Below, in pieces: positions 13,405-63,080 of a stretch of 63,080 nt of DNA (position 1 is the first letter of the stretch; every line of letters begins with the position of its first letter). A model generated the notes under the pieces. That model made no database searches. It was not told the DNA's origin and saw only the letters and a program-made list of their open reading frames with translations. A program made the position numbers and the translations under genes. This DNA is from Candidatus Microgenomates bacterium (GTDB taxonomy: Bacteria > Patescibacteriota > Microgenomatia > JACPZF01). The stretch covers positions 1 through 63,080 of the forward strand of contig JACQHK010000053.1 of the NCBI GenBank assembly GCA_016199065.1, in the 5' to 3' direction.

Positions 13405-14043
13405 TTACTGTTTTGTTCTATTTTTGCTCTTTGCCAAAAGCTCTATCACTTCTTTATCACTCACTTGTGAAAAATCCTTGTAATATGAACCAATAGACGT
13501 AAAGTAATCAGGGGTTAACAGACAATTAATATTATCAATTTTAGGTAAAATTGTGGAGAGACAATCTCGCGCACATACGGGAGCGGCGAAGACAACTTGT
13601 TTGGCTTTTAACTTCCTTATTGAAGCAATTGCTGCTTGGGCTGTTAAGCCGGTGGCCAATCCGTCATCGACCAAAATTACAGTTTTATTCCCTACTTTAG
13701 GAAGAGACCGACCAGCGCGATAAACCCTAATCCGTCTTTTCATTTCCGTTTTTTCCTGATCAATTATTTCTTTTACTTCGTCTCTAGAATATTCGACGCC
13801 ACTATGAACACCCATAACGAGAGTATCTTTTTCCGACAGGGCGCCAATGGCATATTCGGAATTAAATGGCGCGCCGATTTTTCTAACTACCAAGACGTCC
13901 AGAGGTAAATTTAACTCTTTGCTCACCTCATAACCAACCACCACTCCACCTCTTGGTAGGGCAAGTACAATTGCCTTTGAATTTTCATAACTTTTCAAAG
14001 TCGCCGCCAATTTTTTCCCAGCATCAGTTCGATCCTGAAACAT
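13405..14043 (-). CDS. Phosphoribosyltransferase family protein
   Basis: PRPP-binding loop VILVDDGLATGLT. Confidence 0.75.
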   Translation of the reverse strand: MFQDRTDAGKKLAATLKSYENSKAIVLALPRGGVVVGYEVSKELNLPLDVLVVRKIGAPFNSEYAIGALSEKDTLVMGVHSGVEYSRDEVKEIIDQEKTEMKRRIRVYRAGRSLPKVGNKTVILVDDGLATGLTAQAAIASIRKLKAKQVVFAAPVCARDCLSTILPKIDNINCLLTPDYFTSIGSYYKDFSQVSDKEVIELLAKSKNRTKQ

Positions 14044-14154
14044 AAGAGCTTCTTTCTCTCAATATTTTACAATAACCAAGAAACCCACCGTTGAAAGCAA
14101 AGATAATCTATTAAGCTGAAAGTAAGAAACTAATTAATAATTATAAATTATTAA

Positions 14155-14799
14155 TTAGTTGGGGGCGTATTGTTTCATCATCTGCTGAATTTGTTCCTGA
14201 GACATTCCCGGAACTCCCGTACCGCTGGGAACGACCGGTGGCACCATCATTTTAGATAAATCCGTAAACTTCACGTCAGCAGGAGGTGTAAATAAAGCTT
14301 CATCAACGACCCCTGGTTTGCAACTGTCTTTGAATTTTTCCAGCGTAGCTAGAACTTCTTGTCCGTTAACCGTTTGGTCCGTTTTGGTAGTGGGTTTTGT
14401 TATTCCGGTTACGGTTGGTAAGGGAGTAATACTTACTTCAGGAACTTCCATCATCATTCCTTCTTTTTTCACCTCATTCCAAAAATAGATTTTTTTATCT
14501 TTCATAATCATGTTCGTGGAATCTTCGGGTTTAACCGCCATCATGTTAACCCTTACTGCTCCGTTCTTTACGTAAGACTCGGTTTTTCTTCCTTGATCAT
14601 CAGTAAAAGTACAAACCAAACTTAATGATTTAGACAAAGCATCCTTAATTGAAGAAAAGGGACTGGAAGCAGTATCTGCCACTTTTTTAGTCGCGTTCTG
14701 CATTTGATCCTGAACCTGAGATTGGGTATTTTTCAAAAAGGAGCAACCGCCCAATACGGTAAGAAGAACAGAAAATAGAAGTAAAAACTTTATTTTCAT
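14155..14799 (-). CDS. Hypothetical lipoprotein
   Basis: Signal peptide with lipobox LTVLGGCS. Confidence 0.55.
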   Translation of the reverse strand: MKIKFLLLFSVLLTVLGGCSFLKNTQSQVQDQMQNATKKVADTASSPFSSIKDALSKSLSLVCTFTDDQGRKTESYVKNGAVRVNMMAVKPEDSTNMIMKDKKIYFWNEVKKEGMMMEVPEVSITPLPTVTGITKPTTKTDQTVNGQEVLATLEKFKDSCKPGVVDEALFTPPADVKFTDLSKMMVPPVVPSGTGVPGMSQEQIQQMMKQYAPN

Positions 14800-14974
14800 T
14801 AATCTTAGGATAACAATTTTTTGTTTTTTGTCAAGAATAAATTATTAGAATTACCGATTCGTCATTTTCTCTAATAGTTTTTAACTATATTACGACTAAA
14901 AAGATAGATATTGTCTGTTTGAATTATACCAACAACCTATTCAACCCCTGGGGTCGAGACTATAAGTTTAGAAC

Positions 14975-35314: not shown

Positions 35315-36823
35315 TTGGTTTTTGCTAAAATAGCATTCATGGGAAAAAAGGAAAGAAAAAGTTATCAGAAATCAGAAATTGAAATTAAACCTGGTTTACC
35401 CTCTGGTCAGGTCTTCGAGGCAAGGGAGGCAAGAAAAATTTCTTTCTCTCAGATCTTATTATCTTTTGTGATTGGTTTGTTTTTGGGACTAATCCTTCTG
35501 GCCATTTCTTATTATTGGCGTTTTGAAAAAACCTTTGACAATCGTCTTTATCCAGGAATAACAATTAATAATATTGATTTTGGAGGAAAAAGCAAGGAAG
35601 AGGTGGAGAGCTATTTTCAGAAAAAAAATTCTTTATTTAATAATACCCAAGTCGAGTTTGCACTGGAAAATAAAATACTGGCTACGGTTAGCGCGGAAGA
35701 ACTAAAGATCGGCTTTGACGAAAAACTAATTTCTCAACAGGCCTACTTATTAGGAAGAGGACCTTACTTTTTTTCCAATTTACTTTTAAAAGCTAAGACC
35801 TATCTTTATGGCATAGAGCTACCCATCGTAATTGATCTTGACAAAACGAAGGCAGAAGATGCTCTATCAAAACTTTCCCAACAAACCGATATTCCTGCCA
35901 AAAACGCGTTATTTACTTTTTCCGGCGGAAAAGTTGTTGCGTTCAATACTTCCTCTGAAGGAAAAAAACTTAACAGACAAAAAACACTCGATAATCTTTA
36001 TCTAACAATTAAAGAAAAACAAAACAGTCCGGGTAATTTATTAAAGGTCGATGTACAAGTTGAGAAAGTGTTACCCAAAGTAACTACCGAACAAGCTAAC
36101 AACTTGGGTATCAAAGAACTGATTGGTGCCGGTACTTCAACCTTTTTTCATTCAATCCCCAACCGGGTCTATAACATTGGTTTGGCTGCTTCTCGGCTCA
36201 ATGGTATTTTAATTCCACCCGATGGCATTTTTTCTTTCAATGAAAATTTGGGCGATATTAATTCTTTCACCGGCTACAAGCAGGCTTATATTATCCAAAA
36301 CGGCAAAACTATCTTAGGTGACGGTGGTGGTGTTTGCCAGGTATCTACAACATTTTTCCGGGCGGCTCTTAACTCCGGTTTGCCCATTATTGAAAGGTGG
36401 GCACATGCTTACCGGGTAGGATATTATGAACAGGATCAGCCTCCGGGACTAGATGCGACAATTTTTTCACCGACTAATGATTTAAAAATAAAAAATGACA
36501 CGCCGGGTTATATTCTAATTCAAACGGCTTTCGATCCAGAAAATTATCGATTAACCATCTATTTTTACGGGCAAAAAGATAACAGAATTGCTTTAGTTTC
36601 GAAACCGGTAATTAGTAATCAAACGCCGGCCCCTCCTGATGCCTTTCAAGATGACCCTAGTCTGCCCAAAGGACAAGTTAAACAAGTTGATTTTGCCGCT
36701 CCGGGAGCCAAGTCAGTTTTTTCTTACGAAGTTAAAAAAAACGGTTTAACTATTTTTAACAAAACTTTTGTTTCCAATTATCGACCTTGGCAGGCTATAT
36801 TTTTAAGAGGAACAAAAGAATAA
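35315..36823 (+). CDS. VanW-family protein
   Basis: GGGVCQVSTTFFRAALNSGLPIIERWAHAY is the VanW core, preceded by an N-terminal TM anchor. The start is uncertain (TTG at 35315 or ATG at 35339). Confidence 0.8.
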   Translation: MVFAKIAFMGKKERKSYQKSEIEIKPGLPSGQVFEAREARKISFSQILLSFVIGLFLGLILLAISYYWRFEKTFDNRLYPGITINNIDFGGKSKEEVESYFQKKNSLFNNTQVEFALENKILATVSAEELKIGFDEKLISQQAYLLGRGPYFFSNLLLKAKTYLYGIELPIVIDLDKTKAEDALSKLSQQTDIPAKNALFTFSGGKVVAFNTSSEGKKLNRQKTLDNLYLTIKEKQNSPGNLLKVDVQVEKVLPKVTTEQANNLGIKELIGAGTSTFFHSIPNRVYNIGLAASRLNGILIPPDGIFSFNENLGDINSFTGYKQAYIIQNGKTILGDGGGVCQVSTTFFRAALNSGLPIIERWAHAYRVGYYEQDQPPGLDATIFSPTNDLKIKNDTPGYILIQTAFDPENYRLTIYFYGQKDNRIALVSKPVISNQTPAPPDAFQDDPSLPKGQVKQVDFAAPGAKSVFSYEVKKNGLTIFNKTFVSNYRPWQAIFLRGTKE

Positions 36824-43186: not shown

Positions 43187-46126
43187 TCACTTAACTTCCA
43201 CCTTGTCGAAGGCGAAATCAAAGACTTTATCTTCACGTAACTTATCTTCAATCGTTATTTTATTGTTTTTAACTTTTGCCTCTTGAGGAAGCGATTTAAT
43301 CAGGAAAATTTCCGGCCTTACAAGAGAGAAAGAATATTCATCGTTCTGGGCGCCAAGCTGTTTTTGTATAACTAAACGATAGTTTTTGTTCTGATCAAGA
43401 GTTATACCCCCGGTATTTAGCTTCATGACAATGGTAAGTTTTGCTCCCGGAGCAATTTCAGTTAAAAACCCAAAACTGTTTTTTCCTTCTTCTGAGGACT
43501 TATCTACCAAGAGGGCTTCTTTAGAAGAATTCTTACTAATAGCTGACGTTGTGGCAACAATTTCTCTTTCTTGACCATCAAGACTGATGCTTTCTAGCTG
43601 TGTATTAAGCGGCTGATAAATCCGAAGGTAGTTTTTGTATCTACCCTTTTGAAATGATTCGGCAGAATTATTGTTTTGATAAATCAAAGTAATGGTTTTT
43701 TTAGTGGAAGAACCTGTTAATTCCGTTTCTACCTGAACTTTTTTGGCTATTTCCACATTGGCCTTATTAACACCTAAGTTCGCATCAACCACCATTAAAT
43801 AGTCTCCCAAACAATCCTGAAATTCCAAACAGGGATCACCACTTAACCTCCCCGCCCAATTAAATCTAGCCATTAAATTTTCGGCTGATTCGTCATGGAA
43901 AAAAAATGCTAAATGTTTTTCTTCCAGGCTTGTTAACAGTGAAGAAAGCAGGGTCGGGCTGTTTTTGGTTCCTTCCAGAAGTAGTTTATCTAAAAGTCTT
44001 CCCGAAAGGGCGCCCAAAAAGTCTCTTTTTTGTGTCGAACCAGGAAAGAAGTTTTCTTGACTGTAAAATGTGGCTTTTTCAAAGAGGTTTTCGGCGGTAA
44101 TGGTTTCTTGATAATCGGGCAAATTGATTGGACCCACTACCCTAACCAGGTCGGCAATTGCGTTAAGATCGACAAAAAAAACACCGTCAGCTTTTCTACC
44201 CACTTCTTTATCTAAAAACCACTCTGCCTTTTGCGAAGAAAGTAAAAAATCCGGCGACCAGTTGCTGTCTCGCAAATACCAGTGCGGTTGTTCTAAATAT
44301 TCACGTATTGGCCTGGGCGGCTCGATATGTCCAGTGAGCTGACCATCTGCTGTGTAAACGTCCTCAACCTTTAATTCAACCATTTTCCCTTTATCAAAAG
44401 TCAGAATTCCGTAAGAACCGATGAAGCCTCCCGCCGGGCGCTGTTCCATATTGTTAGAAAAAAGTATTAGATAGGTTCTTTTCCCTGATAGACCAAGAAC
44501 TTCGGGTAGAATATCGATTAATTCTCTTGCGCGGGAAACCATTAACCTACCTTTTAAAAACTGTCCTGTCCCTTGAACGATTTTTTCTCTGCTTATTTTT
44601 CCTTTTAAAAAACTGCTTTCGATATTAATGTTGGGTATTTGGCTTTGAATATACGATAGTTTGTTATTAGCCTCATCAAGATTTTTTTTAACATCGATTA
44701 TTTTTAAAGATACCCCACCTTCCTGATCTTGAGAAAAAACCGTTTTGGTTACATCATTAAAATCAGCCGCAGCTTCAATGAGCGAAGTGGCGGCGCTAAC
44801 ACCGTCTTTTGTTAACAATAAAATCTTTTCGGTTTCCTGATATTCTTTTTCCTTACCTGCGAGCGAAAAAATCGATGAATAAAGGCTTAAACTCCTTTGT
44901 ATCCCATCAACATTACCGGATAATTCTCTCGTGGTTTTTGACATCTCTGTCAGATTTTGAGAAGCAATTTGCCTCTCCAAAAGCTGTAAGTTACTTTGGG
45001 TTTTTTTAACAATTAAAAAGAGATAGAGTGCCGGTGAAAATAGCAGTAATAAGAACAGTAAACAAAGGACAGTAATTAGAGTAAATTTTTTGTTTATGAC
45101 AATTTTTCTCGAAATTGAAGAGGGATTATTTGGTAAATCAGGGAAAATTTTTTGTTCCTCATCTTTTGAAAAAGAGTCGTCTTTGTTAAAGAAAGAAAAC
45201 GTCTCCTCAATTCCCTTCTCTGGGGAGATTTCCGGATTCCAAGCGAGTTGTTTGGCAGAGGATTTTGGTCTTTTTTGCCAGGAAAAAACTTCCTGGCTAT
45301 CTTTAACCATCAGAATTCTTCCTTCACCGTTCAACTTCTTTTCTAGGATTTGAGCAAAAGACAAAACATTAATCGGTTGTGGGTTAACAAGATTAAAGAC
45401 AAAGCCTTTGGTCTCATAACCAAACATGGCTTTTAAAATACCGCTTATGGCATCTTTAATAAATGTAGGATATAACAGATTTAAACCATCATCCTCGACA
45501 ACAAGAGGTTTTTTTTGAAGTGCTTCATAGAATAATTTGGCTAAATGATTGGTCTGGTTTAATTTCATACGAGGCCCGTATAAATCCAGCAGTCGGATTA
45601 TTCGTAAATCGAGGTGAAATTTTTTGTAATATGCCGTAACCAAAGCCTCGGTATATTTTCTGGTCTGTTCGAAGAAAGAATCAGTGGATTTAAATAAAGA
45701 TCCATAATTTTCTTCTCCCGATCCAGATAGTTCGATTTTTTCCCAAAGATTTAGAGAAGTTGCCAGTAGAAATTTAGCTTCTTTCTCACGAGTTAATTCG
45801 AGAATTTTGGTAATAGCAAGGGGTTCCTGAGTATCGTCCTGTTCCAAATTGGAAAGATGAAAAATGTAATTTATTTCCTCTTTAAACCTTAAGCTATCTT
45901 GACTTAGATTGTATGTAAAATACGAAAAATTAGGATGGGACAAGGCAATGGATAAATTACTGGTCTTGGATTTATCTATCTCATCGATGCCTATTACCTT
46001 ACATTTTAGCTTCAATAATTCTTCTATTAAAAAAGAACCCACCGCACTGTTTGCACTGCTAACCAGTACGGTAGAGGCTTCTTTAGCTTCAACAAAGTCA
46101 AAATATTTTTGGGCAGTTTCACTCAT
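43187..46126 (-). CDS. Fusion protein: degenerate NAD-epimerase/dehydratase-like domain, TM segment, then DUF4012-like domain
   Basis: 979 aa. The N-terminal ~320 aa resemble an SDR epimerase, but VLVSSANSAVGSFL replaces the GxxGxxG motif. A central TM helix (LITVLCLLFLLLLFSPALYLFLIV) follows. The C-terminal part has RPAGGFIGSYG, characteristic of DUF4012. Confidence 0.65.
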   Translation of the reverse strand: MSETAQKYFDFVEAKEASTVLVSSANSAVGSFLIEELLKLKCKVIGIDEIDKSKTSNLSIALSHPNFSYFTYNLSQDSLRFKEEINYIFHLSNLEQDDTQEPLAITKILELTREKEAKFLLATSLNLWEKIELSGSGEENYGSLFKSTDSFFEQTRKYTEALVTAYYKKFHLDLRIIRLLDLYGPRMKLNQTNHLAKLFYEALQKKPLVVEDDGLNLLYPTFIKDAISGILKAMFGYETKGFVFNLVNPQPINVLSFAQILEKKLNGEGRILMVKDSQEVFSWQKRPKSSAKQLAWNPEISPEKGIEETFSFFNKDDSFSKDEEQKIFPDLPNNPSSISRKIVINKKFTLITVLCLLFLLLLFSPALYLFLIVKKTQSNLQLLERQIASQNLTEMSKTTRELSGNVDGIQRSLSLYSSIFSLAGKEKEYQETEKILLLTKDGVSAATSLIEAAADFNDVTKTVFSQDQEGGVSLKIIDVKKNLDEANNKLSYIQSQIPNINIESSFLKGKISREKIVQGTGQFLKGRLMVSRARELIDILPEVLGLSGKRTYLILFSNNMEQRPAGGFIGSYGILTFDKGKMVELKVEDVYTADGQLTGHIEPPRPIREYLEQPHWYLRDSNWSPDFLLSSQKAEWFLDKEVGRKADGVFFVDLNAIADLVRVVGPINLPDYQETITAENLFEKATFYSQENFFPGSTQKRDFLGALSGRLLDKLLLEGTKNSPTLLSSLLTSLEEKHLAFFFHDESAENLMARFNWAGRLSGDPCLEFQDCLGDYLMVVDANLGVNKANVEIAKKVQVETELTGSSTKKTITLIYQNNNSAESFQKGRYKNYLRIYQPLNTQLESISLDGQEREIVATTSAISKNSSKEALLVDKSSEEGKNSFGFLTEIAPGAKLTIVMKLNTGGITLDQNKNYRLVIQKQLGAQNDEYSFSLVRPEIFLIKSLPQEAKVKNNKITIEDKLREDKVFDFAFDKVEVK

Positions 46127-53298: not shown

Positions 53299-54420
53299 AT
53301 GAAAGCAATTCTTTTACAAGAAAATTTTTCCAAAGCACTTTTTATAGCCAGTAAATTTACTCCCCTTCGTGCCCAACTACCAATACTCTCAAATTTTTTC
53401 TTAGAAGCCAAAGAAGGGCAAATTTTGATTTATGCCACAAATCTAGAGTCAGGAATAAAAATAGGGGTTCCTGCAAAGATTGAAAAAGAAGGTAAGGTAA
53501 TCGTTCCGGCAAAAACACTCACCGAGCTAGTTGCGGGATTGCCCAACGACAAAGTTGCTCTTGAATTTTTGGAAAAAAAACTAGAAATTAACTGCCTGCA
53601 GCATAAGGCGTCACTTAATGTTTTTGTGGGTCAGGATTTTCCTGCCTTTCCCCAAGGGAACAAAAAGAAAGAAATTGTCATAGGAAAAGATGTTTTAAAA
53701 GAAGTCTCGAAAAAAGTTGTTTTTGCTGCGTCTTCCGACGAGACAAGACCAACACTAACCGGCATCTTAATTTCTCTAGGCGAAAACGCCATCACCTTTG
53801 TTGCCACAGATGGTTTTAGGCTTTCCCTAATGAGCTCAAAGGCACCCTATGTTAAAAAAGAGGAGACTACTACCACCCTTCTTTTGCCGGCCAAGATTTT
53901 ACAGGAGCTTAATAAAACAGTTTCCGACACGGAGGCTGAAGAAGGCGTTAATTTGGAAATTCTCGCAGAGAGCAACCAGGTCATTTTTTCCAGCGGGGAT
54001 ATCACCTTGTTTAGCAGAATAATTGAAGGAAAATTTCCACCCTATGAAAAAATTCTTCCCAAGGAATTTGTTGTGAAAGCAGAAGTAGACAGAGAAAGTC
54101 TATTAGAGTCGGTAAAAATTGCCTCTATTTTTGCCAGAGATGCCGGCAACATTTTAAAAATTAAAATAGAGAAGAAGGCACTTAAAATTTCTGCCAATGC
54201 GCCCCAAACAGGAGAAAATACCAACGAGGTTGAGGCACTGACAGAAGGTGATTCCGTAGAGGTTGCCGTGAACAGCCGTTATCTTCTTGAGTTGTTAAAC
54301 AATATTGATTTTGAGCAACTTGGCCTTCGCCTTGCAGGACCATTAAGCCCGGTGGTTTTTACGGAAAAAGGCAAAGAAGATTTTTTGCATATTATCATGC
54401 CGGTCAGGGTGCAGGGTTAA
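53299..54420 (+). CDS. dnaN: DNA polymerase III beta sliding clamp
   Basis: 373 aa with ATDGFRLS, FPPYEKILP and SPVVF motifs, in the position after dnaA. Confidence 0.95.
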   Translation: MKAILLQENFSKALFIASKFTPLRAQLPILSNFFLEAKEGQILIYATNLESGIKIGVPAKIEKEGKVIVPAKTLTELVAGLPNDKVALEFLEKKLEINCLQHKASLNVFVGQDFPAFPQGNKKKEIVIGKDVLKEVSKKVVFAASSDETRPTLTGILISLGENAITFVATDGFRLSLMSSKAPYVKKEETTTTLLLPAKILQELNKTVSDTEAEEGVNLEILAESNQVIFSSGDITLFSRIIEGKFPPYEKILPKEFVVKAEVDRESLLESVKIASIFARDAGNILKIKIEKKALKISANAPQTGENTNEVEALTEGDSVEVAVNSRYLLELLNNIDFEQLGLRLAGPLSPVVFTEKGKEDFLHIIMPVRVQG

Positions 54421-55468
54421 GGAGATTGCTGTTTTTTACTGCCGGAAGGTAAACGGAAATTTTGCCCCTTTTCCCAGAAGAGCTAATTGCCTCACCCCCC
54501 AAAACATAAACGGGTGGTAATAAATTTTGTTTTTGAGGATAGACCAAATAAGCAATTTCTAGTGTTGTAAAATTAACACGAGCCAGGTCGTTTATATCCA
54601 AATCTGAAGCGCCATTTTCGTCGGGAATAATTTGTATAACTCGAAAGGAAGAGAAGGGAGTTTTTTTAACTTCATTAACCCCCAACAGTTCATATTTGCC
54701 GAAATTATTAGTGTTAGTTTTCGGATTATAATATTGAATCTTAACGATTTTCCCCGATGTTTTGTCGATGAGTAGGCTTACCAAACTGCCCGCTTCACCG
54801 ATTCCCACAAGAGGAACTTCTTCAATTGTGGGACGGAAAGTGAAAGAAAGAATTGTGGCGCTTGAAGAACTTGTTGTTTCTAATTCGTCTCCGATTCTTG
54901 TAAGATTGGTTACCGCGGGAGAATTACTGAGATTTCTTTCTAGACCATTCTCTTTTAAAAAAGTAAAAACGCGGTTGCCAATTTCGTTTTCTGAGTTGCC
55001 AGCGAGTAAGGTTTTTGATTCTCCGGAAAAAGAGAAACTTCCATTAAGTAAATTCCCTACAAAAACCGACCGACCAACCTCCTTGTAATAAGTTTTACTG
55101 GTCTGGTCTGAAATTACTTTCGGCGCGATCTTCCCCAGGAGCTTATTAGAAATACTATTAAAAAGATTCATCAACTGTTCTTCGCTCTGTTCTTCCAGAG
55201 AATAAATATTTATTACTGCTGGAAGCTCTCCCTTTTGAAAAGAAAAAGAGGCCTTCGTATTAATGGGCAGAGGCTCTGCTTCAATGAGGCTTTCGCGATA
55301 AATAATTTTTCCGAAAAAGTTTTTCTTGTCGGACCGGCTTTGGACAGAATAAACAGATGCGGCTATTATGACAAGAAGAATCAGAAAAAGTATTCGAATT
55401 ACTCCGTTGTTAAACAGAGAAAGCAGCATGTCTTTTAATTCTTTTTTATTTACCACAATATTTTTCAT
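54404..55468 (-). CDS. Hypothetical membrane-anchored extracytoplasmic protein, translationally coupled to the giant M23 protein
   Basis: 354 aa with an N-terminal TM helix (ILFLILLVIIAASVY). Its ATG lies 3 nt after the upstream TAA, and the upstream gene's final GGAGAA serves as the SD. Confidence 0.55.
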   Translation of the reverse strand: MKNIVVNKKELKDMLLSLFNNGVIRILFLILLVIIAASVYSVQSRSDKKNFFGKIIYRESLIEAEPLPINTKASFSFQKGELPAVINIYSLEEQSEEQLMNLFNSISNKLLGKIAPKVISDQTSKTYYKEVGRSVFVGNLLNGSFSFSGESKTLLAGNSENEIGNRVFTFLKENGLERNLSNSPAVTNLTRIGDELETTSSSSATILSFTFRPTIEEVPLVGIGEAGSLVSLLIDKTSGKIVKIQYYNPKTNTNNFGKYELLGVNEVKKTPFSSFRVIQIIPDENGASDLDINDLARVNFTTLEIAYLVYPQKQNLLPPVYVLGGEAISSSGKRGKISVYLPAVKNSNLLNPAP

Positions 55469-55471
55469 ATT

Positions 55472-58400
55472 TTATTCTCCGTGACCGCCCCCGCTTGTAG
55501 CCGGACAGCCGCCTATTATAATCAGACAGGGATTAATGGTGTGCTGTGATCCATTATAAAAGCAGGACACTTCTCCACAAGTTGCCGCACTAAAATGCAA
55601 GTGTGGCCCCGTGCTTTTTCCTGTTGTGCCGGAATAGGCAATTACTTGTCCGGCAGTTACAGAATCTCCCTCATTGAGTCCGGTTGTATAAGCGTGAGCC
55701 GCATCTCCCTGAACTCCTCCCAGGTGGGCATATAAGTAATAGTCATTATTTTTTCCTTTAATAATAATATAGTAACCAAACCCATTGGCCATATATCCCT
55801 TTTTATGAACGGTTCCGTTCACAACAGAAACGAGCGGAGTAGAAAGACCTAAGGGAATATCAATTCCATTATGGCGTCCAGGCTCGTATCCTTGTGACAA
55901 AGAGCTGGGTTTTCCTCCGGTTGGCCAGGCGCTTATTCCGCCCGACGGACCAGCATTAAGCGGTGTAGTTAATTCCGCCTGACAAGAAGGAACGGTTAGT
56001 GGGCCAAGCGGTCCCAAAGAGGGGGTATAGGGAAGCTGTGCGGAATCTGATTCTCGCACGAAGGCATAATCAGTTTCTTCCCCGGAATAAACTACATCTT
56101 TCAAGCAAACTTCAATCACCGAGCCCTGGGGAATTTTATATAAAACTTGTCCTTGGGTTAATGAACCGGCCAAAGAATTGATTTTCTGTTCCAGCTCCGG
56201 GCTGTTTGCGCCGTATCTTAATAATGTATCTCTAATTTCGTTAATATAACCAATCTGTTTTTCCATAAGGGATTTATTGTTGTCGATTGATTTCAATTGG
56301 TCATTTAACTGTTTTATTGCTTGGGTGCGTTGTTCGGGTGTGGCGCCTTTTAGTCCCGCATAAAAACCTTCGGCCTGTTGGTTCAGCTGGTTGGCAATTG
56401 CCAAGTTTTTATTTATATTAATACAGGACGGTAAACTGGTTGATGTAGCACAATTACTAATCACCTCGTTTATTTCAGGGCGGTAACCGCTATAAGAAGT
56501 AGTAGCGAACCTAACAAGATAATCTGTTTGTTTGACGATATTATCAAGCGTGGTTTTTTGGTGCTGTTCTATAAGTTCGTTAATCTCCTCGTTGGTAATA
56601 TTTGGTCTACTTTCTATTTCATTTAATATTGCCAATTCCTGTTGCAATAATAAGTTTTTTTGGGTATTTAATAAAGAATCCTGAACGATTTGCTCGACGA
56701 TTAGCATTTTTGCATTCTCGCTGTAGTTTGCGACTCCACCGTTTTCAACCGCCTGGGCGAGTTGCTTAATGCTTTCTAGTGCCCGACGGTCAATCTCTCC
56801 TGAGGTATCTAGGGGTGGGGTGATGGAAAAAACGTATTGTTTGAATCCCCGATAGACTTGTTCTTGGTATCCTAGTCCGTAGCCACCAACGGTCTGGTCT
56901 TTTATAAGATCAATAGGTGTCGTTGTACCGGGTAATGTGACTTTTACTGAATAGCCCCCTACGGTAAATTTGTTGGGAGGACCAAGAAATTTAGTTTTGG
57001 TGATTTGTGAAGGATAATATTCCTCTTTTATGGTTGTTGTCCAGCAGATATCTTTTTTTTCTCCCTTTTTGAAGGTGGAAAGGGTAGAGCCGTTAAACTT
57101 CGGCTGGTCTATTGAGAAACATTTTGAAACGGCCGTTACTCCTTCTAGCCTTTCAGAAATTGGTATCCAGTAAGCAGCGCCAATTAAAACTACGGCAAAA
57201 ACTGTAAAGGCAACGACCGCGATTAGTCCGGTTACGGCAACCGCAGCAATTAAAGAGGTGCTGATTGCGGTAATTGCACCGGCAATGCCGGTTAATACGG
57301 CTGCAATTGGTGCTGCCGCCGCGGGTAAAAGTGCCGCGATGGTAGTTAGGATGGTGGGGGCAAATGAAAAAACCAATCCGGTTACAAGAGGAAAGAAAAT
57401 ACTGTTGACAAAAGGAATATCAAACCCCATCAGGCCGGTAACGACCTGAATACCCGTACCTATCCAAAAACCAGCATTAAACAAACCGATAAATCGGGAA
57501 AATAACGGAATATAGCTAAAAAGGCCCGAGGCTGCTGCTAGTCTGTAGACTGCGTAGAGTATTGGATTAAGGGCAAACCAGCCAATTGCCGCGCCAATAA
57601 GGGGTGCCAAAAAGACGCCTGGAAATAAGATCGAAGCAAGCTCCCAGCCAATTATGGCACCGGCCAAATTAGATATCCCGACTCCGCGAAAAGAAGCCCT
57701 GATTGTTTTAAAGAAATTGGTTAGGCCAGGATGCGCCGTCTGAAAATTACTAATAAAGGAATTAAAAACGTTTGGTAATCCTGAATAACGGAAGTTTAAA
57801 TATCTTGCGTACCATCCTCTTGGTTGGGCTAAAAACTGGCCACCCTCTTTGTACAACAAAACCTGTGTTTTTCCAGCCTGGGAAATTAAACTAAAGCCTG
57901 GACCTTCTGCTATTTCAAATTTTAATAAGTTGTATTCTAGGCCGGGTGCTACTCCTACGGTTTTTCCAAAACGAAGATAATCCCAGAATCTTCCCACTCC
58001 TGGTTTGGCAATAATGTTCCATAAATTACCTTTGATTTGCCACAAATAATCTGCGGCGACGGGCATCCAGTTTTGGTACCAGGGAATATATTGCTGAAGA
58101 AAAGCTTCGTAGGGGGATAAAAATTGTGAAATGGCCAATCCTCTTATCGGGAGTCGGAAAAAACTACCCACAGGAGAATTAAGCCAATAGGCAAGACGCT
58201 GTATTGGCCCTGGTCCGAGAAGACTATTGGTAAATCTGATCAGTCCTCTTTGCCACCAGTTGAGCCGGGATAATTCTGCTTCACTAATGCGTAAAGAGAA
58301 TCCTTTAAGTCTAGCCTCCGCTGCTCTTATCTCTGCCTGGTTAAAAGCACCCTCTTGTTTAAGCGTCCTAATCTCGTTAAGGGCGTTTTTATAATCTCCA

Positions 58401-60127
58401 ACCCATCTCATAATTGTCGGATCTTTAGCTACGTTTAATACCCATTGATATCCCCAACCAACAGCCGTTCCGGTTCCAAAACCGACATATCCTCCGAGTT
58501 CTGCGCCCGCAACGGGGTCCATTCCCAAGAGTTGGGCGATATTTTGCCCAATGGCTCTTCCCAAGTGATAGCCAGAATATGCCCCGGAGAGGGTATTAAG
58601 GCTGGGAAGAGCACGAACCATGTGTCCTGCAGTTTTCCAGGCGATTTGTGAAGTTTTTACTGCAGGATTATTGAGAAATCTGTCAACGAAATTAGTGAGT
58701 TTTTGCCAAAAACTTGAAGAGCGAATGACCTCCTTAACGTGGTTTAGTAATACCTTATCAGCCAGCCTAATAATATTTCCAATTGTTAAATCAATAATCC
58801 ACTCGGCTATCAAGATTGACAGCCAAGAGAGAGGATCCCTATCAGTTCGTTTAAGATTCTTACTTACGCTTTTTAAGCCAAAGGTACGAAAAAGTGTAGG
58901 TAAGGCAGTTTCTTTGGTGGGTAATCTTTTTAACCCTAATTCTGTCTCGCGTTTTTCAATAAGTTTGTCTAAGGTCTTTATTTTTTGTTCATTCCATGGC
59001 TGCTCGTGAAAGGATTTTCGCTTTTCATTTTGCAATTTAAGTACTGAACTTTCCGTAGAAATTGCTTCCAGAAAGTCTCCGGTAAAATTTACTGCCTGTT
59101 GTAATTTTAGGATGGGAACAAAAACCTTACCCCTTAACTCATTTCCATACATGTCATATCTTTTGGCCATTAGTTTGGGTCCGCCAAGTCTGCCAACCAT
59201 GTAGGCAGTTTCTCCTGCCGCGTCGAGCAAAAAATCAATGGCTTTTTCTTCAGGGAGGTGATTTACCAAATATTCCATGCGATAAGGACTCCACCAAGAT
59301 TTACCCAATTGGTAATTGATGTTAAATTGAATTTCCTTGCCTCGAAGATTTTCTAAAACTTCTCCCAGCGGTCCTAAGGTTCTGAAGAAAAAACTCCAGC
59401 CCGCCTCATCCAAAGCAGGATGGAGGTCTTTTAAGGTATGAATGCCATATCTAAGTGCACGGAGATGGGCATTTTGAATATAATATGCCTCATAAGAGGC
59501 GTCTTTAGCCCCCAGCTTAGCCGCCTGTAGATTTTGAGCCAACCCTGCATAAGATTCATAATAAGCCTTTTTCAGTTCACCGTACATTTTAGCTACGGTT
59601 CCTAAATCTTTGGGAGAGACCGGACCAACCCTTTCTTCCTGTTTTTTTAATTCTTCAGGGGTTTTGGGCATTAAAAGCGATGGCGTTTCTCTTATTGGTC
59701 TTTGGGTGGCGAGTCTTGTGTAAGAAGGGGGCTGAATTGGTTTTGCGATCCTTTGGGCTTCGGGTTTTGGCTGAATTACTTCAAAGATGACTTCGGTTGG
59801 GTAACTAACACCGTAATTTTCAATTGCAATTTGTTTGGCTTCGCCTTCTGAATTGACCGTTACCCATCTCCCGTCAGGAAGTGCTACGCGATATTCTTTT
59901 CCCTCACCTAAAGAAGGACGGCTGGGTTTTCGCGGATAGGCAGGTGAGACGGTTGTCGTTCTTGCCGGAGGCTGGGGTGGCTGGGCAACTTTATATTCCA
60001 CGCCCTCAATGACATTAGGCGGAGAGCCACCCGAAGGGGATTCCTCAGTTTCGCTGTCTATATCAACGATTCTGCTGGGAGGAATAATACTAGCGCTTCC
60101 TAACTGTGGTTTTTTCTTGTCGGCCAT
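55472..60127 (-). CDS. Giant multidomain membrane protein with a C-terminal M23 (LytM-type) peptidase domain
   Basis: 1551 aa. It has a Pro-rich N-terminus and a Gly/Ala-rich TM cluster (about 57160..57700). A coiled-coil-like Q/N/L-rich region follows. The M23 domain has HNGIDI and TGKSTGPHLHFS (about 55570..55930). Confidence 0.85.
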   Translation of the reverse strand: MADKKKPQLGSASIIPPSRIVDIDSETEESPSGGSPPNVIEGVEYKVAQPPQPPARTTTVSPAYPRKPSRPSLGEGKEYRVALPDGRWVTVNSEGEAKQIAIENYGVSYPTEVIFEVIQPKPEAQRIAKPIQPPSYTRLATQRPIRETPSLLMPKTPEELKKQEERVGPVSPKDLGTVAKMYGELKKAYYESYAGLAQNLQAAKLGAKDASYEAYYIQNAHLRALRYGIHTLKDLHPALDEAGWSFFFRTLGPLGEVLENLRGKEIQFNINYQLGKSWWSPYRMEYLVNHLPEEKAIDFLLDAAGETAYMVGRLGGPKLMAKRYDMYGNELRGKVFVPILKLQQAVNFTGDFLEAISTESSVLKLQNEKRKSFHEQPWNEQKIKTLDKLIEKRETELGLKRLPTKETALPTLFRTFGLKSVSKNLKRTDRDPLSWLSILIAEWIIDLTIGNIIRLADKVLLNHVKEVIRSSSFWQKLTNFVDRFLNNPAVKTSQIAWKTAGHMVRALPSLNTLSGAYSGYHLGRAIGQNIAQLLGMDPVAGAELGGYVGFGTGTAVGWGYQWVLNVAKDPTIMRWVGDYKNALNEIRTLKQEGAFNQAEIRAAEARLKGFSLRISEAELSRLNWWQRGLIRFTNSLLGPGPIQRLAYWLNSPVGSFFRLPIRGLAISQFLSPYEAFLQQYIPWYQNWMPVAADYLWQIKGNLWNIIAKPGVGRFWDYLRFGKTVGVAPGLEYNLLKFEIAEGPGFSLISQAGKTQVLLYKEGGQFLAQPRGWYARYLNFRYSGLPNVFNSFISNFQTAHPGLTNFFKTIRASFRGVGISNLAGAIIGWELASILFPGVFLAPLIGAAIGWFALNPILYAVYRLAAASGLFSYIPLFSRFIGLFNAGFWIGTGIQVVTGLMGFDIPFVNSIFFPLVTGLVFSFAPTILTTIAALLPAAAAPIAAVLTGIAGAITAISTSLIAAVAVTGLIAVVAFTVFAVVLIGAAYWIPISERLEGVTAVSKCFSIDQPKFNGSTLSTFKKGEKKDICWTTTIKEEYYPSQITKTKFLGPPNKFTVGGYSVKVTLPGTTTPIDLIKDQTVGGYGLGYQEQVYRGFKQYVFSITPPLDTSGEIDRRALESIKQLAQAVENGGVANYSENAKMLIVEQIVQDSLLNTQKNLLLQQELAILNEIESRPNITNEEINELIEQHQKTTLDNIVKQTDYLVRFATTSYSGYRPEINEVISNCATSTSLPSCININKNLAIANQLNQQAEGFYAGLKGATPEQRTQAIKQLNDQLKSIDNNKSLMEKQIGYINEIRDTLLRYGANSPELEQKINSLAGSLTQGQVLYKIPQGSVIEVCLKDVVYSGEETDYAFVRESDSAQLPYTPSLGPLGPLTVPSCQAELTTPLNAGPSGGISAWPTGGKPSSLSQGYEPGRHNGIDIPLGLSTPLVSVVNGTVHKKGYMANGFGYYIIIKGKNNDYYLYAHLGGVQGDAAHAYTTGLNEGDSVTAGQVIAYSGTTGKSTGPHLHFSAATCGEVSCFYNGSQHTINPCLIIIGGCPATSGGGHGE

Positions 60128-60186
60128 ACTCCTAAACTATAGCAAAAGAGGTATGGTTTGGAAAGCGGATTGGTGTAAAACTTGCC

Positions 60187-60636
60187 TTAAAACACCGGAT
60201 AAAACGGGGATTTTTTAATTTTTATTCCTTCCTCTTCAATTTCACCGATAAAATCTTTTACTTTGTCTTCGTGAAAAAAGTGCCATCGGGAAATTCCACC
60301 AATAACTGCTACAGTTGCGACCAACGACCATAATTGTAAAAAGGGTTTCAGGGTATGACTAGAGACCCAGCTTAAAAAGGCACTGCTCGAAAACAGAACT
60401 AAAAAAACCAAAGTCAAAATGCCCGCCATTCTACTGCGGGCTTTCTTTTCCTGGTGGGCCAAGGAATCTTCCGGCGGGACAGGGAAAAAGTCGGACTGTG
60501 TTTGCGGAAACGGTCTGGTCATCATTTTCTGTAACTCTTGTACTTCCCGATCAGAAAGACTTACCTGTCCGGTGTTTTGGCAAATTGCACAGCCCTTACC
60601 TCCGCAGTTTGGGCAAACATATGTTTGGGTTGGCAT
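60187..60636 (-). CDS. Membrane protein with an N-terminal DnaJ-type zinc finger
   Basis: CPNCGGKGCAICQNTGQ gives two CxxC motifs (the first is CxxCxGxG). Two or three TM helices follow. Confidence 0.55.
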   Translation of the reverse strand: MPTQTYVCPNCGGKGCAICQNTGQVSLSDREVQELQKMMTRPFPQTQSDFFPVPPEDSLAHQEKKARSRMAGILTLVFLVLFSSSAFLSWVSSHTLKPFLQLWSLVATVAVIGGISRWHFFHEDKVKDFIGEIEEEGIKIKKSPFYPVF

Positions 60637-60712
60637 ATATTTAAAAATTAAAATGTAAAAAGTAAAATGACAATTTAAATTTTTTCTCTATCATTTTTTA
60701 TTTTTGACTTTT

Positions 60713-60731
60713 GCCTGTCCTTCCGACAGGC
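60713..60731. terminator. GC-rich hairpin after the Clp ATPase gene
   Basis: GCCTGTC-CTTCC-GACAGGC, flanked by A/T tracts on both sides. Confidence 0.45.
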
Positions 60732-60743
60732 GGGCATTTTTAA

Positions 60744-62897
60744 TTAAACTCCCAGTTCCTTTTCTCCCCACAATATATCGTCTCCTGGCTTAATCCTGCC
60801 CTGCAGGATTTGTTGGGCGAGCTCGTCTTCTATTTTTTGCTGCACAAGCCTTTTTAGGGGTCTTGCACCGTATTCGGGAGAGTAGGCGGTTTGGGCAAGT
60901 TTTCCTAGAGCTTCTGGTGTTAAGGAAAACTTAATATTTTGTTCTGATAATCTTTCCTGAACCTTTTTTAATTGGATTTGGGCAATTTTTACGATTGCCT
61001 CTTTAGTTAAAGAACTCATCAGAATAATTTCATCAATTCTGTTTAAAAATTCGGGACGGAAATAAGAACCAAGCGCATTCATAATCTGGTCTCTTTTTTT
61101 CTTTTCATCTTTTTCGTTGGGGTCAACATATTCGCCGATTTGAATATTGGAAGTCATTATAATAATGGTATTTTTAAAATCAACCGTGTGCCCTTGTGCG
61201 TCAGTAAGTCGACCGTCTTCTAAAACTTGTAAAAAAACATCAAACACCTTAGGGTGTCCCTTTTCTATTTCGTCAAGTAAAATTAAAGAATAAGGTCTAA
61301 GCCTGATGGGATTAGTCAACTGCCCTCCTTCTTCGTATCCTACGTATCCTGGAGGGGCCCCCAAGAGCCGATCGGCAGTATGAGACTCGGTGAATTCACT
61401 CATATCCAGTCTTACCATCGCACCCTCACTGCCATATACCAATTTAGCTAATACTTTTGCCAGTTCTGTTTTTCCCACACCGGTTGGTCCGAGAAGCAAA
61501 AACGAACCAAGAGGTCGTTTGGGATCTTTTAAGCCTGCCCGCGAACGGCGAATTACATCAGCGACTTCTTCTACTGCCCGATCTTGACCAACGACAAACT
61601 CTTTGATTCTCTCTTCCAGCCCGAGTAGATTTTTCGCTTCTTCTGCGGAGAGGTCGGTTAAAGGGATACCTGTCCGTTGGGAGATAATTTTTTGAATATC
61701 TTCTCTTAGCACTTTATCCTTGTTTTTAATTTTTACTTCAGAGGAAGCTTCGTCCAGAAGATCAATAGCTTTATCGGGAAGATAACGGTCGGTAATATAT
61801 CTCTGAGAAAGTGTAACGGCCGATTTAACGGCCTCAGCGTCGATAGCGACTTGATAATGATTCCCCAATTTTTTAGCAACTGCAGAAAGAATCTTAATCG
61901 CACTTTCGGTGTCGGGTTCGGCAACATAGATTGGTTCGAAGCGACGAGAAAGCGCCGGATCTCTTTCTACATATTGACGATACTCTGTCGGTGTGGTAGC
62001 GCCGATGGTATGTATCTCCCCTCGGGCAAGTGCGGGTTTTAAAATATTAGCCGCAGACATCGAACCGGCCATACCCCCGGCGCCAATTAGCATATGCATT
62101 TCATCTACAAACAAAATCACATTTCCCGCCTTTTTAATTTCGTCAAGTAGAGCAGTAAATCTTTTTTCCAACTCTCCTTGGTATTCAGTTCCAGCCAAGA
62201 CCGAAGTGAGATTTAAAGAAAGCACTTTGACATCTTTTAAAACCGGAGGTACTTGCCCGTTAATTATTTTTTGTGCCAATCCTTCTACAATCGCCGTTTT
62301 TCCTACTCCCGCCTCTCCGATTAATACGGCATTACTTTTAGTTCTTCTGGCCAATACCCTGATCGTTTGTTCGATTTCTATCTCTCTACCGACAACCTCA
62401 TCAAGTTGTCCGTAGCGTGCTCGTTTCGTCAGGTCCAGACAAAACTGGTCAAGGGTGGGTGTTTTTTCCAGTGAAAGGTTTCCGCCCGCCATTTGCGTTA
62501 CTACTTTTCGTGCCTTATCTATATCAAAAAAAGAAGGAAAAATAACAGAACAAGCCAAAAAGAGATCGTAAAGGCTAACTTCTGCTCGATTAAAAAGAAA
62601 ACTTTCACTATATGCAGAAAAAATTATTTTTTTTAATTCTACGGAAAACACCACCCTGTCTTGATGAGCCTGATGATTAATATCTGTAGAATCCTTTAGT
62701 CCTACAAAAAGCTTTTCTTCTAAACTTAGCTGTTCCAGGACCTCTTTAACTTCCTTGCTTTTTAAAAGAATTTTTAGGAGGTGGTAGGGCGTTGCCTGTG
62801 TAGAATTTTGTTGCGCCGCCAATAAAAGAGTTTCGGCCAAAACCCGCTTAGTATCGTCGTTGTATAAAGAAGTGATATCCAGAGAGTTGGTTGACAT
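60744..62897 (-). CDS. Two-ring Clp/Hsp100 AAA+ ATPase (compact ClpB/ClpC-like form)
   Basis: Walker A GEAGVGKT (D1) and GPTGVGKT (D2), Walker B ILFVDEMH and LILLDEIEK, and sensor GARPLKR. It is only 717 aa. Confidence 0.9.
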   Translation of the reverse strand: MSTNSLDITSLYNDDTKRVLAETLLLAAQQNSTQATPYHLLKILLKSKEVKEVLEQLSLEEKLFVGLKDSTDINHQAHQDRVVFSVELKKIIFSAYSESFLFNRAEVSLYDLFLACSVIFPSFFDIDKARKVVTQMAGGNLSLEKTPTLDQFCLDLTKRARYGQLDEVVGREIEIEQTIRVLARRTKSNAVLIGEAGVGKTAIVEGLAQKIINGQVPPVLKDVKVLSLNLTSVLAGTEYQGELEKRFTALLDEIKKAGNVILFVDEMHMLIGAGGMAGSMSAANILKPALARGEIHTIGATTPTEYRQYVERDPALSRRFEPIYVAEPDTESAIKILSAVAKKLGNHYQVAIDAEAVKSAVTLSQRYITDRYLPDKAIDLLDEASSEVKIKNKDKVLREDIQKIISQRTGIPLTDLSAEEAKNLLGLEERIKEFVVGQDRAVEEVADVIRRSRAGLKDPKRPLGSFLLLGPTGVGKTELAKVLAKLVYGSEGAMVRLDMSEFTESHTADRLLGAPPGYVGYEEGGQLTNPIRLRPYSLILLDEIEKGHPKVFDVFLQVLEDGRLTDAQGHTVDFKNTIIIMTSNIQIGEYVDPNEKDEKKKRDQIMNALGSYFRPEFLNRIDEIILMSSLTKEAIVKIAQIQLKKVQERLSEQNIKFSLTPEALGKLAQTAYSPEYGARPLKRLVQQKIEDELAQQILQGRIKPGDDILWGEKELGV

Positions 62898-62904
62898 ATA
62901 AGTT

Positions 62905-63034
62905 AATTTTCCAATTTACTAGTTTTCCTAATTTTCCAATAAAGTTTCAATTTTACAATTATCAAATTTTGGAAACTGAAATTTGAACATTGATATTTGT
63001 TTAGAAAATTCGAAAATTATGAAAATTGTAAATT
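62905..63034. repeat. AATTTTC/GAAAATT heptamer palindromic intergenic repeat, copy R5
   Basis: The left arm is AATTTTCCAATTTACTAGTTTTCCTAATTTTCC and the right arm is GAAAATTCGAAAATTATGAAAATTGTAAATT. The left arm is nearly identical to that of R4. Confidence 0.8.
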
Positions 63035-63080
63035 ATAAGTTGCCAATTATTCCCCACAAAACAACGATTAGAATTAGTCC

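Follow-up and report, generated by a model that had tools for sequence, protein, structure and literature searches.

The sequence considered here, referred to below as the window, is a stretch of 63,080 nucleotides from a Candidatus Microgenomates bacterium (contig JACQHK010000053.1). It is an entire contig around the replication origin, and carries yidC, yidD, rnpA, dnaA and dnaN along with the genes for GroEL, LeuRS and CysRS. Near dnaN, on the minus strand, lies an open reading frame (ORF) at 55472..60127, with an ATG start and its stop codon at 55472..55474, which encodes a protein of 1551 amino acids (aa) named 'M23 family metallopeptidase [Candidatus Microgenomates bacterium]' by NCBI. 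This giant protein belongs to a family of giant membrane proteins encoded within a type IV secretion system (T4SS)/pilus gene cluster of the ultrasmall Microgenomates bacteria, which fall within the candidate phyla radiation (CPR).

The giant gene is bracketed by further genes on the same strand. Downstream, 3 nt past the end of the ORF, begins the gene for a 354-aa protein (54404..55468) that is anchored in the membrane at its N-terminus and continues into a domain whose fold is unknown. Its 3' end converges with that of dnaN (plus strand, 53299..54420) in a 17-nt overlap (54404..54420), and the same kind of overlap is seen in two of the related loci described below, L001 and L003. Upstream, at a distance of 59 nt, is the gene for a 149-aa protein (60187..60636) with an N-terminal CxxC..CxxC zinc finger (CPNCGGKGCAICQNTG) and two transmembrane helices, which is preceded by that for a 717-aa double AAA+ ATPase of the ClpB/ClpA/ClpV type (60744..62897). 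This ClpB-like protein is devoid of the ClpB middle domain and scores under every NCBIfam cut-off. The contig is then cut inside yet another gene, of which the last 15 codons and the stop codon remain (63033..63080); the encoded fragment, GLILIVVLWGIIGNL, matches the C-terminus of an 84-aa zinc-finger/transmembrane protein of L001. The small proteins on either side of the ATPase have N-terminal zinc-finger motifs of a CxxCxGxG-like form (CPNCGGKGCAICQNTG; CPTCEGQGCGECGNFG) that resemble the cysteine-rich domain of DnaJ, and the corresponding trio, which lies at 7114..9969 in L001, is retained ahead of the giant gene in all 13 related loci. Scans of the window for tRNAs and Rfam families yielded no match, and a promoter/terminator scan of 54000..63080 gave counts close to the shuffled expectation.

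Architecture of the giant protein

The protein starts with MADKKKPQLGSASIIPP; this N-terminus is hydrophilic, with neither an N-terminal hydrophobic signal nor a signal peptide. Its first 167 residues (59627..60127) form a Pro-rich, PxxP-rich hydrophilic head that is conserved in the closest homologues only. There are 27 prolines within the first 200 residues, and overlapping PxxP motifs number six in aa 1-150 as against 0.43 per 150 aa elsewhere. An all-alpha region devoid of cysteine follows (aa 168-810; 57698..59626), which is predicted to be cytoplasmic and has no match in Pfam, PDB or BFVD. Within it, a hydrophobicity scan picked out an isolated semi-hydrophobic helix (aa 435-456) with the conserved motif RDPxSxL..GG..D..G..N..R, and there are Gly-rich helices at aa 500-570; these elements may dip into the membrane. 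The AlphaFold model of aa 168-1000 is all-helical, with a mean predicted local distance difference test (pLDDT) of 67, rising above 90 for aa ~487-707.

The centre of the protein is a Gly/Ala-rich transmembrane bundle (aa 811-992; 57152..57697) in which just 5 residues of the roughly 7 helices are charged; the hydrophobicity scan displayed it as a single continuous hydrophobic Gly/Ala-rich block (aa 816-992, DNA 57152..57697). The 559 residues downstream of this block were modelled with confidence (aa 990-1551, pLDDT 85.9) and resolve into four parts. The first is a beta-sandwich (aa 1001-1105; 56813..57127; about aa 1004-1103 in the model), predicted to be extracytoplasmic, with the conserved C1003 and C1028. 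It leads into a Q/N/L-rich helical stalk (aa 1111-1324; 56156..56797), modelled as a bundle of long helices, single helices reaching 38-42 residues or about 6 nm; Q and N together account for 19-20 residues per 100 aa across aa 1101-1300, and C1226 and C1235 are conserved. Next comes a small beta domain (aa 1330-1395; 55943..56140; aa 1337-1392 in the model) with the motif (F/Y)YxIPxGT..VC and the conserved C1341 and C1382. The protein closes with an M23/LytM metallopeptidase domain (aa 1400-1551; 55475..55930), in which H1419, D1423, H1468, H1509 and H1511 are intact, and the tail of which bears C1517, C1522, C1534 and C1541. Much of this had been anticipated in an initial annotation made from the DNA letters alone. 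The ORF itself, the missing signal peptide, the PxxP-rich first 150 aa, the hydrophobic cluster (placed at 57160..57700), the roughly 560 residues beyond it, the Q/N/L-rich heptad-like segments, the LytM/M23 core and the two terminal Cys motifs (1517/1522 and 1534/1541) were all recovered.

The M23 domain

Peptidase_M23 (PF01551) is the sole Pfam domain of the giant protein and matches aa 1418-1514 with an E-value of 2e-18 and 66.7 bits against a cut-off of 28.7. The HNGID motif (H1419, D1423), H1468 and the HLH motif (H1509, H1511) do not vary among the six closest homologues. The catalytic His/Asp ligands, loss of which on alignment would have spoken against the initial annotation, are all present; they also align with LytM. 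In a Foldseek comparison, the C-terminal model matched LytM (4zyb_B) with a TM(target) of 0.76 and a root-mean-square deviation of 2.0 Å over 131 columns at 34% identity, and the closest solved relatives of the domain are StM23 (9gy1), LytM, zoocin A and lysostaphin. The fold, the Pfam match and the zinc/catalytic residues all identify it as a zinc endopeptidase of family M23, and as such the domain is ordinary; it is probably an active wall hydrolase. SLT, muramidase, CHAP and NlpC-P60 domains were sought with Pfam and none was found in the protein.

Peptidoglycan is expected in the organism because it encodes two class A penicillin-binding proteins, which are arranged in tandem in the window (25778..28372 and 28506..30812, minus strand). 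Together with a VanW/PG_binding_4 protein (35315..36823, plus strand) and a 979-aa epimerase-DUF4012 fusion (43187..46126, minus strand), they indicate an organism that makes peptidoglycan and invests in envelope functions.

Predicted membrane topology

Two independent signals bear on the orientation of the protein. The first is the placement of cysteines: all 10 lie past aa 1000 (1003, 1028, 1226, 1235, 1341, 1382, 1517, 1522, 1534 and 1541), a placement that cysteines spread uniformly would show with a probability of (549/1551)^10, or about 3e-5. Seven of the 10 are invariant in the three closest sequences, and family-wide nearly all cysteines are found beyond the last hydrophobic segment, in even counts (6-12). 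The second is charge. Averaged over 37 members, the 25 residues preceding the transmembrane bundle have a net charge of +3.0 and 3.6 K/R, as against -1.6 and 0.8 K/R for the 25 residues past it. Both signals suggest an N-in/C-out topology, in which the segment before the bundle would be cytoplasmic and the C-terminal ~560 residues, including the M23 domain, would lie outside the cell and contain disulfides. A cytoplasmic M23 domain had been set beforehand as the outcome that would count against the initial annotation; the prediction places it on the outer side.

Family membership and phyletic range

Searches with a word-index method recovered only three full-length proteins with the whole giant protein as query, and, with a 37-sequence profile, those three and two unrelated phage M23 proteins. 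This method was swamped because the query is long and has low-complexity stretches, and it was an exhaustive HMMER search that revealed the family. A profile of aa 168-1367, from which the M23 domain was excluded, run against 1.84 billion representatives, retrieved no more than 47 clusters at E<=1e-3, the majority with lengths of 1150-1600 aa. The named members come from Candidatus Gottesmanbacteria, Beckwithbacteria, Curtissbacteria and Microgenomates, and are all annotated as hypothetical. All belong to the class Microgenomatia, except that one identical sequence is also binned as Uhrbacteria; this member is deposited under both Curtissbacteria and Uhrbacteria. The closest homologues, P0002 (37% identity) and P0003 (30%), are collinear with the giant protein over its full length. 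The most conserved positions of the family fall in and around the transmembrane bundle (W696, N812, G823, G827, G845, S1001, C1028 and a W987..P989 motif). Judged by these searches, the roughly 1400 residues outside the M23 domain belong to an undescribed family with no detectable relatives beyond one CPR class.

The M23 domain is present in 7 of 37 family members. Those that lack it end 54-91 residues past the start of the (F/Y)YxIPxGT motif (54-69 in all but one), and the M23 domain has therefore been added at the C-terminus in a part of the family only. The initial annotation had suggested a cell-wall remodelling or host-wall-breaching device; this fits the domain itself, which is an accessory of one subclade and not the core of the family.

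This distribution bears on the possibility that the protein is a housekeeping factor for wall remodelling or division, of the EnvC/FtsX kind, with a T4SS neighbourhood unrelated to its function. Foldseek indeed ranks EnvC of the FtsEX-EnvC complex first among whole-model matches of the C-terminal model (8tzl_E, E 5e-9 over 446 columns; also 6tpi), a match owed to the layout common to both, a coiled coil and then a LytM domain. Weak NCBIfam matches are to NlpD, MepM, ActS and DipM, and the surroundings of the gene, near dnaN, consist of housekeeping genes. The NCBIfam matches, however, cover the M23 domain only and fall far under the cut-offs (e.g. 39.9 bits against 311), the LytM domain of EnvC is non-catalytic whereas that of the giant protein keeps all its ligands, and most family members have no M23 domain at all. 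Further, neither ftsE nor ftsX adjoins the giant gene in the window, its partners being constant T4SS-locus genes, and the family is confined to one CPR class, whereas one would expect a component of the divisome to occur widely. We consider this explanation quite improbable.

A design raised by the initial annotation, the tape measure of a prophage or tailocin with a terminal M23 lysin, is effectively refuted. In its favour are the size, helicity and Gly-rich segments of the protein, the match of PHROG tape-measure families to the M23 domain, and a match of phrog_4197 to the hydrophobic block (E 0.009). Against it, no phage genes are present in the window, where the neighbours are instead dnaN, the ClpB-like gene and the genes for zinc-finger membrane proteins, or in 13 related loci; the near-origin chromosomal position is conserved across genera; and tblastn with aa 168-1395 found no match in 50,697 phage records, nor in 72,556 plasmids. 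A true M23 tape measure, P0051, which had been considered as a Saccharimonadia-type counterpart and was rejected, sits unlike the giant protein among baseplate genes (locus L016, with T4_baseplate, Phage_base_V and GPW_gp25 genes).

Conserved gene neighbourhoods and the type IV secretion link

Thirteen related loci with upstream sequence were compared, and nine loci of distant members were read and compared by tblastn. A search with a 6-sequence alignment added a new locus, L004, from a Candidatus Gottesmanbacteria metagenome-assembled genome (MAG), and a partial one, L005; a further candidate, L006, was discarded as an irrelevant M23 match. The most informative relative, L001, is a 155-kb contig on which a PrgI/VirB3-like gene with a CarboxypepD_reg domain is followed by a 246-aa TrsD-like gene, a 637-aa VirB4 gene, the 84-aa gene, the ClpB-like gene, a 149-aa gene, the giant gene and a gene for a 343-aa protein, and then by convergent dnaN and dnaA. 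Its VirB4 scores 401.9 bits against the cut-off of 325 of the NCBIfam model 'VirB4-like conjugal transfer ATPase, CD1110 family'. The order from the PrgI/VirB3-like gene to the giant gene is common to L001/L002, L004 and L005. In L001/L002 and L004 it runs on into the ~350-aa gene, dnaN and dnaA, and L005 breaks off within the giant gene; L003, which begins part-way through the ClpB-like gene, has the same order from that point. With L012, a locus of a distant member, virB4 is found together with the giant gene in five loci (L001, L002, L004, L005 and L012). The 84-aa gene, the tail of which marks the edge of the window, lies in L001 and L004 between virB4 and the ClpB-like gene.

The initial annotation had stated that no phage or T4SS genes flank the giant gene, and had set this against both the tape-measure and the conjugation VirB1/VirB6-like designs. 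This is literally so within the window and nonetheless misleading: the contig ends inside a conserved locus, and the apparent lack of T4SS genes is a contig-end artefact, because in the relatives the same gene order continues into the PrgI/VirB3-like, TrsD-like and VirB4 genes.

Two features of these relatives may be recorded in passing. The virB4 gene of L004 (2231..5890, 1219 aa) is interrupted by an intein that includes a homing endonuclease of the LAGLIDADG type (Intein_splicing E 8e-17, LAGLIDADG_3 E 5e-18). The 5.5-kb contig L005 (CAYJSC010000054.1) contains VirB4, the ClpB-like gene, a 150-aa gene and the beginning of the giant gene, all of them typical of Microgenomatia; it nonetheless forms part of a MAG that bears the name 'uncultured Gammaproteobacteria bacterium', probably through a binning error.

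Across the whole set, the most constant associates are upstream: both the ClpB-like gene and a 133-158-aa zinc-finger/two-transmembrane-helix gene precede the giant gene in 13 of 13 loci with upstream sequence. Other T4SS components recur among distant members, at 20-24% identity to the giant protein: arrays of 4-9 PF18895 T4SS pilin (VirB2-like) genes occur in L008, L012 and L015, a PrgI-like gene lies within 10 kb of the giant gene in L008, L010 and L012, and TrsD-like and VirB4 genes are found in L012. Adjacency to dnaN is restricted to the window clade (window, L001/L002, L003 and L004), so the initial annotation's question of whether the protein always lies beside dnaN is answered in the negative. 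Its companion question, whether the two flanking small genes are always present, has a divided answer. The upstream one is constant, but the ~350-aa anchored protein downstream occurs in all five M23-bearing lineages (window; L001, 14747..15778; L003, 6047..7084; L004, 14079..15275; L010, 6850..7899) and in none of six M23-less ones. It has no Pfam, NCBIfam or PHROG match; its co-occurrence with the M23 domain suggests that the two form a functional pair, for example with the ~350-aa protein as a regulator, inhibitor or wall-binding partner.

Two further genes characterise all lineages except the window clade. One encodes a polytopic protein of about 230 (~200-235) aa with an HExxH motif (LHEMSHIL, LHELSHIL), which resembles site-2/M50 intramembrane proteases, has no Pfam match and lies just upstream of the giant gene (L008, 8839..9456; L010, 1593..2300; L012, 9340..10035). 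The other encodes a protein of ~440-470 (430-473) aa with a signal peptide and 5-6 transmembrane helices (L008, 14793..16214; L010, 7944..9260; L012, 14024..15436; also L007, L013, L014 and L015), and stands directly after the giant gene or the bitopic gene in 6 of 7 other lineages. This polytopic family gave no Pfam, NCBIfam or PDB sequence match, and a profile-profile comparison (hhalign) with the giant family detected no relationship between the two; it is a candidate for a divergent VirB6 of Microgenomatia.

The latter observation is pertinent to the idea that the giant protein is itself the 'extended VirB6' so far missing from the Microgenomatia T4SS, diverged to an extreme degree. Its bundle would then be a translocation channel or platform for pilus assembly, and its large hydrophilic domains would be additions of this lineage, a fused VirB1-like hydrolase among them. 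Extended VirB6 proteins are defined as polytopic, with at least five hydrophobic helices and large hydrophilic domains (PMC12857230), a description that the giant protein fits, and in its relatives it is encoded in a virB4 cluster. In Microgenomatia VirB6 has been reported as 'scarce', 'suggesting extreme sequence divergence', and VirB8 as almost undetected (PMC12102498); the sequence seen of the window clade has no other polytopic candidate, and the most conserved positions of the family fall in the transmembrane bundle. Yet no member matches the Pfam TrbL/VirB6 profile, Foldseek returned no VirB6/TrwI match, though with a poor transmembrane model, and the 800 residues before the bundle are unlike known extended VirB6 proteins. 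By size and layout, the ~440-470-aa protein is the better VirB6 candidate. On this evidence we regard the idea as unlikely. Of the T4SS-type design suggested by the initial annotation, the part that stands is the locus, which in relatives runs into T4SS genes or pilin arrays; VirB6 membership is not borne out.

The constancy of the ClpB-like gene invites another explanation, in which the giant protein, the ClpB-like unfoldase and the zinc-finger proteins form a distinct Hsp100-driven device. This might be a membrane channel into which unfolded proteins are pushed, or might unfold the giant protein itself and deliver it as tape-measure-like cargo into the host envelope, the hydrophobic helices inserting into the host membrane and the M23 domain cutting the host wall. 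The 13 of 13 linkage is tighter than that to VirB4, and the coupling protein VirD4 is absent from all of the related loci read. Large hydrophilic proteins (~980 to >2280 aa) without a signal peptide, with at most one hydrophobic segment and no Pfam match, are encoded divergently beside the cassette (minus strand: L001, 1..2651; L008, 17574..22046; L012, 17148..21431; L014, 17947..24380; L015, 17842..24396), and these could be cargo or cytoplasmic machine parts. The composition of the giant protein is tape-measure-like, and tape measures are the best BFVD matches of its N-terminal/transmembrane model. These matches, though, are non-significant (E 0.04-0.2; best E 0.04, TM 0.08, all with TM below 0.1), the family-wide positive-inside and Cys patterns argue for a stable N-in/C-out placement in the membrane of the producer, and ClpB-like genes near the origin can be ordinary chaperones. 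Such a separate device seems to us doubtful.

A related proposal keeps the T4SS and makes the trio of DnaJ-like zinc-finger membrane protein, ClpB-like unfoldase and giant protein its Hsp100-powered export gate, in place of VirD4. Unfolded cargo, for which the neighbouring ~980 to >2280-aa proteins are candidates, may be threaded through, or handed to, a channel or platform formed by the giant protein, with the M23 domain as an optional wall-opening tip; in principle this would be analogous to the HSP101-EXP2 translocon (PTEX) of Plasmodium. We offer this as a speculation with a low likelihood of being correct.

As a separate observation, genes of toxin-antitoxin or defence type are inserted between cassette genes in two Beckwithbacteria loci: HicA with a partner, Fic, and AbiEii with a partner (L008, 9444..9940 and 13883..14836; L012, 7985..9336).

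A proposed role in the Patescibacteria T4SS

According to Quinonero-Coronel et al. 2025 (PMC12102498), most Patescibacteria encode on the chromosome a T4SS that is akin to the MPF-FATA type of monoderms. It is usually without a relaxase or a nearby coupling protein, has arrays of VirB2-like pilins, and is encoded near dnaA/dnaN in Microgenomatia and Paceibacteria. The main text of that study and the supplementary files searched contain no mention of the giant family, an M23 fusion or the ClpB-like gene. Taking the anatomy and the gene neighbourhoods together, we favour, with modest confidence, the view that the giant protein is a lineage-specific integral-membrane subunit, confined to the class Microgenomatia, of the Patescibacteria T4SS/VirB2-pilus apparatus, equipped with an M23 wall endopeptidase. 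The anatomy, the intact active site, the family and the synteny are established here; the topology, the part played in the T4SS and the substrate are inferred.

Such a subunit would keep its N-terminal ~800 residues in the cytoplasm, where ATPases of the locus (VirB4, the ClpB-like AAA+ protein) might dock. About seven Gly/Ala-rich helices would span the membrane, and the last ~560 residues would project outward as a disulfide-stabilised beta-sandwich, a helical stalk of roughly 6 nm and the small beta domain. In the subclade of the window, a catalytically intact M23 (LytM-type) endopeptidase would have been added at the tip, presumably cutting peptide cross-links of peptidoglycan. Its task could be of the VirB1 type, a local opening of the producer's own wall through which the machine or pilus is assembled; alternatively, it might act against the wall of the host where the cells are in contact. 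The 354-aa anchored protein, which co-occurs with the M23 domain, may be its partner or regulator.

Several observations weigh against this view. The M23 domain is absent from 30 of 37 members, and for this reason wall cutting cannot be the core function of the family. The window itself has no T4SS gene and only the tail of the 84-aa gene, so that the T4SS link depends on relatives at 30-37% identity or less and on the 15-codon fragment; the cassette of zinc-finger proteins, ClpB-like protein and giant protein could be a separate machine that merely neighbours T4SS genes. The similarity searches gave no positive sign either. No Pfam TrbL/VirB6 or PrgH-type match was detected in the giant protein at E<=0.1, or TrbL/VirB6 or PrgH match in the 37 members at E<=1e-3, and when a profile of aa 168-1367 was run against PDB sequences, no match at E<=1 emerged. 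The transmembrane bundle was modelled at a pLDDT of 35-65 only, and with this poor model a Foldseek search of the N-terminal/transmembrane part against PDB found nothing at E<1, VirB6/TrwI included.

If the proposed role is correct, it concerns a system of some consequence. Before the T4SS of Patescibacteria, none had been shown to be essential to the organism that carries it; in Southlakia epibionticum the locus SEML1_0006-0019 is essential (Wang et al. 2023, PMC10633639). The Patescibacteria system is thought to lie behind the epibiotic way of life, dependent on a host, of a very large share of bacterial diversity. Little is known of its composition beyond Saccharimonadia, and VirB6, VirB8 and VirB1 were for the most part not found in Microgenomatia by the 2025 survey (PMC12102498); the giant family with its constant partners provides concrete candidates for these missing parts. 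The 13 of 13 linkage further points to an unusual connection between an Hsp100-type unfoldase and a T4SS, and the M23 domain is a defined, probably active wall hydrolase that can be expressed and assayed.

Relation to known systems

Phage tape measures with a C-terminal M23 domain resemble the giant protein in size, helicity, Gly-rich hydrophobic segments and the terminal peptidase, but there is no significant similarity outside the M23 domain and no phage context, and the chromosomal position of the giant gene is conserved. With EnvC (8tzl, 6tpi) it shares a LytM domain that comes after a long coiled coil of helices, extracytoplasmic in EnvC and predicted to be so here. EnvC, however, is an activator that is soluble in the periplasm, has a degenerate LytM domain and is controlled by the FtsEX ABC transporter, whereas the giant protein has its stalk fused to a transmembrane bundle of its own and keeps an intact active site, and its gene lies outside any ftsEX context.

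The extended VirB6 proteins (TcpH, ConG, Orf15 of Tn916; SEML1_0013), of 700 to 1100 aa, are likewise polytopic with at least five hydrophobic helices and large hydrophilic domains. In TcpH and ConG the transmembrane domain is N-terminal, as against the central bundle of the giant protein; no sequence or fold similarity was detected between the two groups, nor does the giant protein belong to the VirB6 sequence profile, and most giant-related loci have a separate polytopic gene of VirB6 size.

Among T4SS loci of other CPR classes, the closest parallel is that of Candidatus Southlakia epibionticum (Saccharimonadia). There dnaA, dnaN and recF are followed on the opposite strand by SEML1_0004, 0005, 0006 (lysozyme/CHAP), 0007, 0008 (VirB4), 0009 and 0010 (PrgI) (PMC10633639). 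SEML1_0007 is a 1113-aa protein with a C-terminal DD-peptidase fold, essential for epibiotic growth (PMC10633639 supplementary tables), and a CPR 'Peptidase M23 domain-containing protein' is among its structural neighbours in AFDB (PMC10633639). Like the giant protein, it is large, has its gene shortly downstream of virB4 with few genes separating it from dnaN/dnaA, and ends in a peptidoglycan peptidase. It differs in that this peptidase has a Hedgehog/DD-peptidase (M15-like) and not an M23 fold, that no ClpB-like gene is listed between SEML1_0007 and virB4, and that its owner belongs to another CPR class. The giant protein can be regarded as a positional counterpart of SEML1_0007, in a comparison by position and description, and in this respect the Southlakia locus counts in favour of the proposed role.

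A functional parallel is provided by the VirB1-like wall hydrolases of the T4SS of Gram-positive (monoderm) bacteria, exemplified by PrgK, TraG of pIP501 and CwlT. VirB1 homologues are mostly not associated with virB4 (PMC12102498). The transglycosylase/muramidase or CHAP/NlpC-P60 domain typical of the VirB1-like proteins was not found in the giant protein. PrgK of pCF10, of the DELTA class, has one transmembrane helix and a muramidase domain, and its LytM domain is described as regulatory (PMC12857230); the giant protein, in contrast, has about 7 transmembrane helices, ~800 residues predicted to be cytoplasmic, no SLT, muramidase or CHAP domain, and an M23 domain that keeps all its catalytic residues. 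What PrgK offers as a likeness is the overall plan: a membrane-anchored protein with a cytoplasmic N-terminus and an extracellular wall hydrolase that includes a LytM/M23 domain, encoded in a T4SS locus of the MPF-FATA type (PMC12857230). By its predicted topology, and by the synteny of its relatives, the giant protein would likewise be an anchored, exposed wall hydrolase of a T4SS locus.

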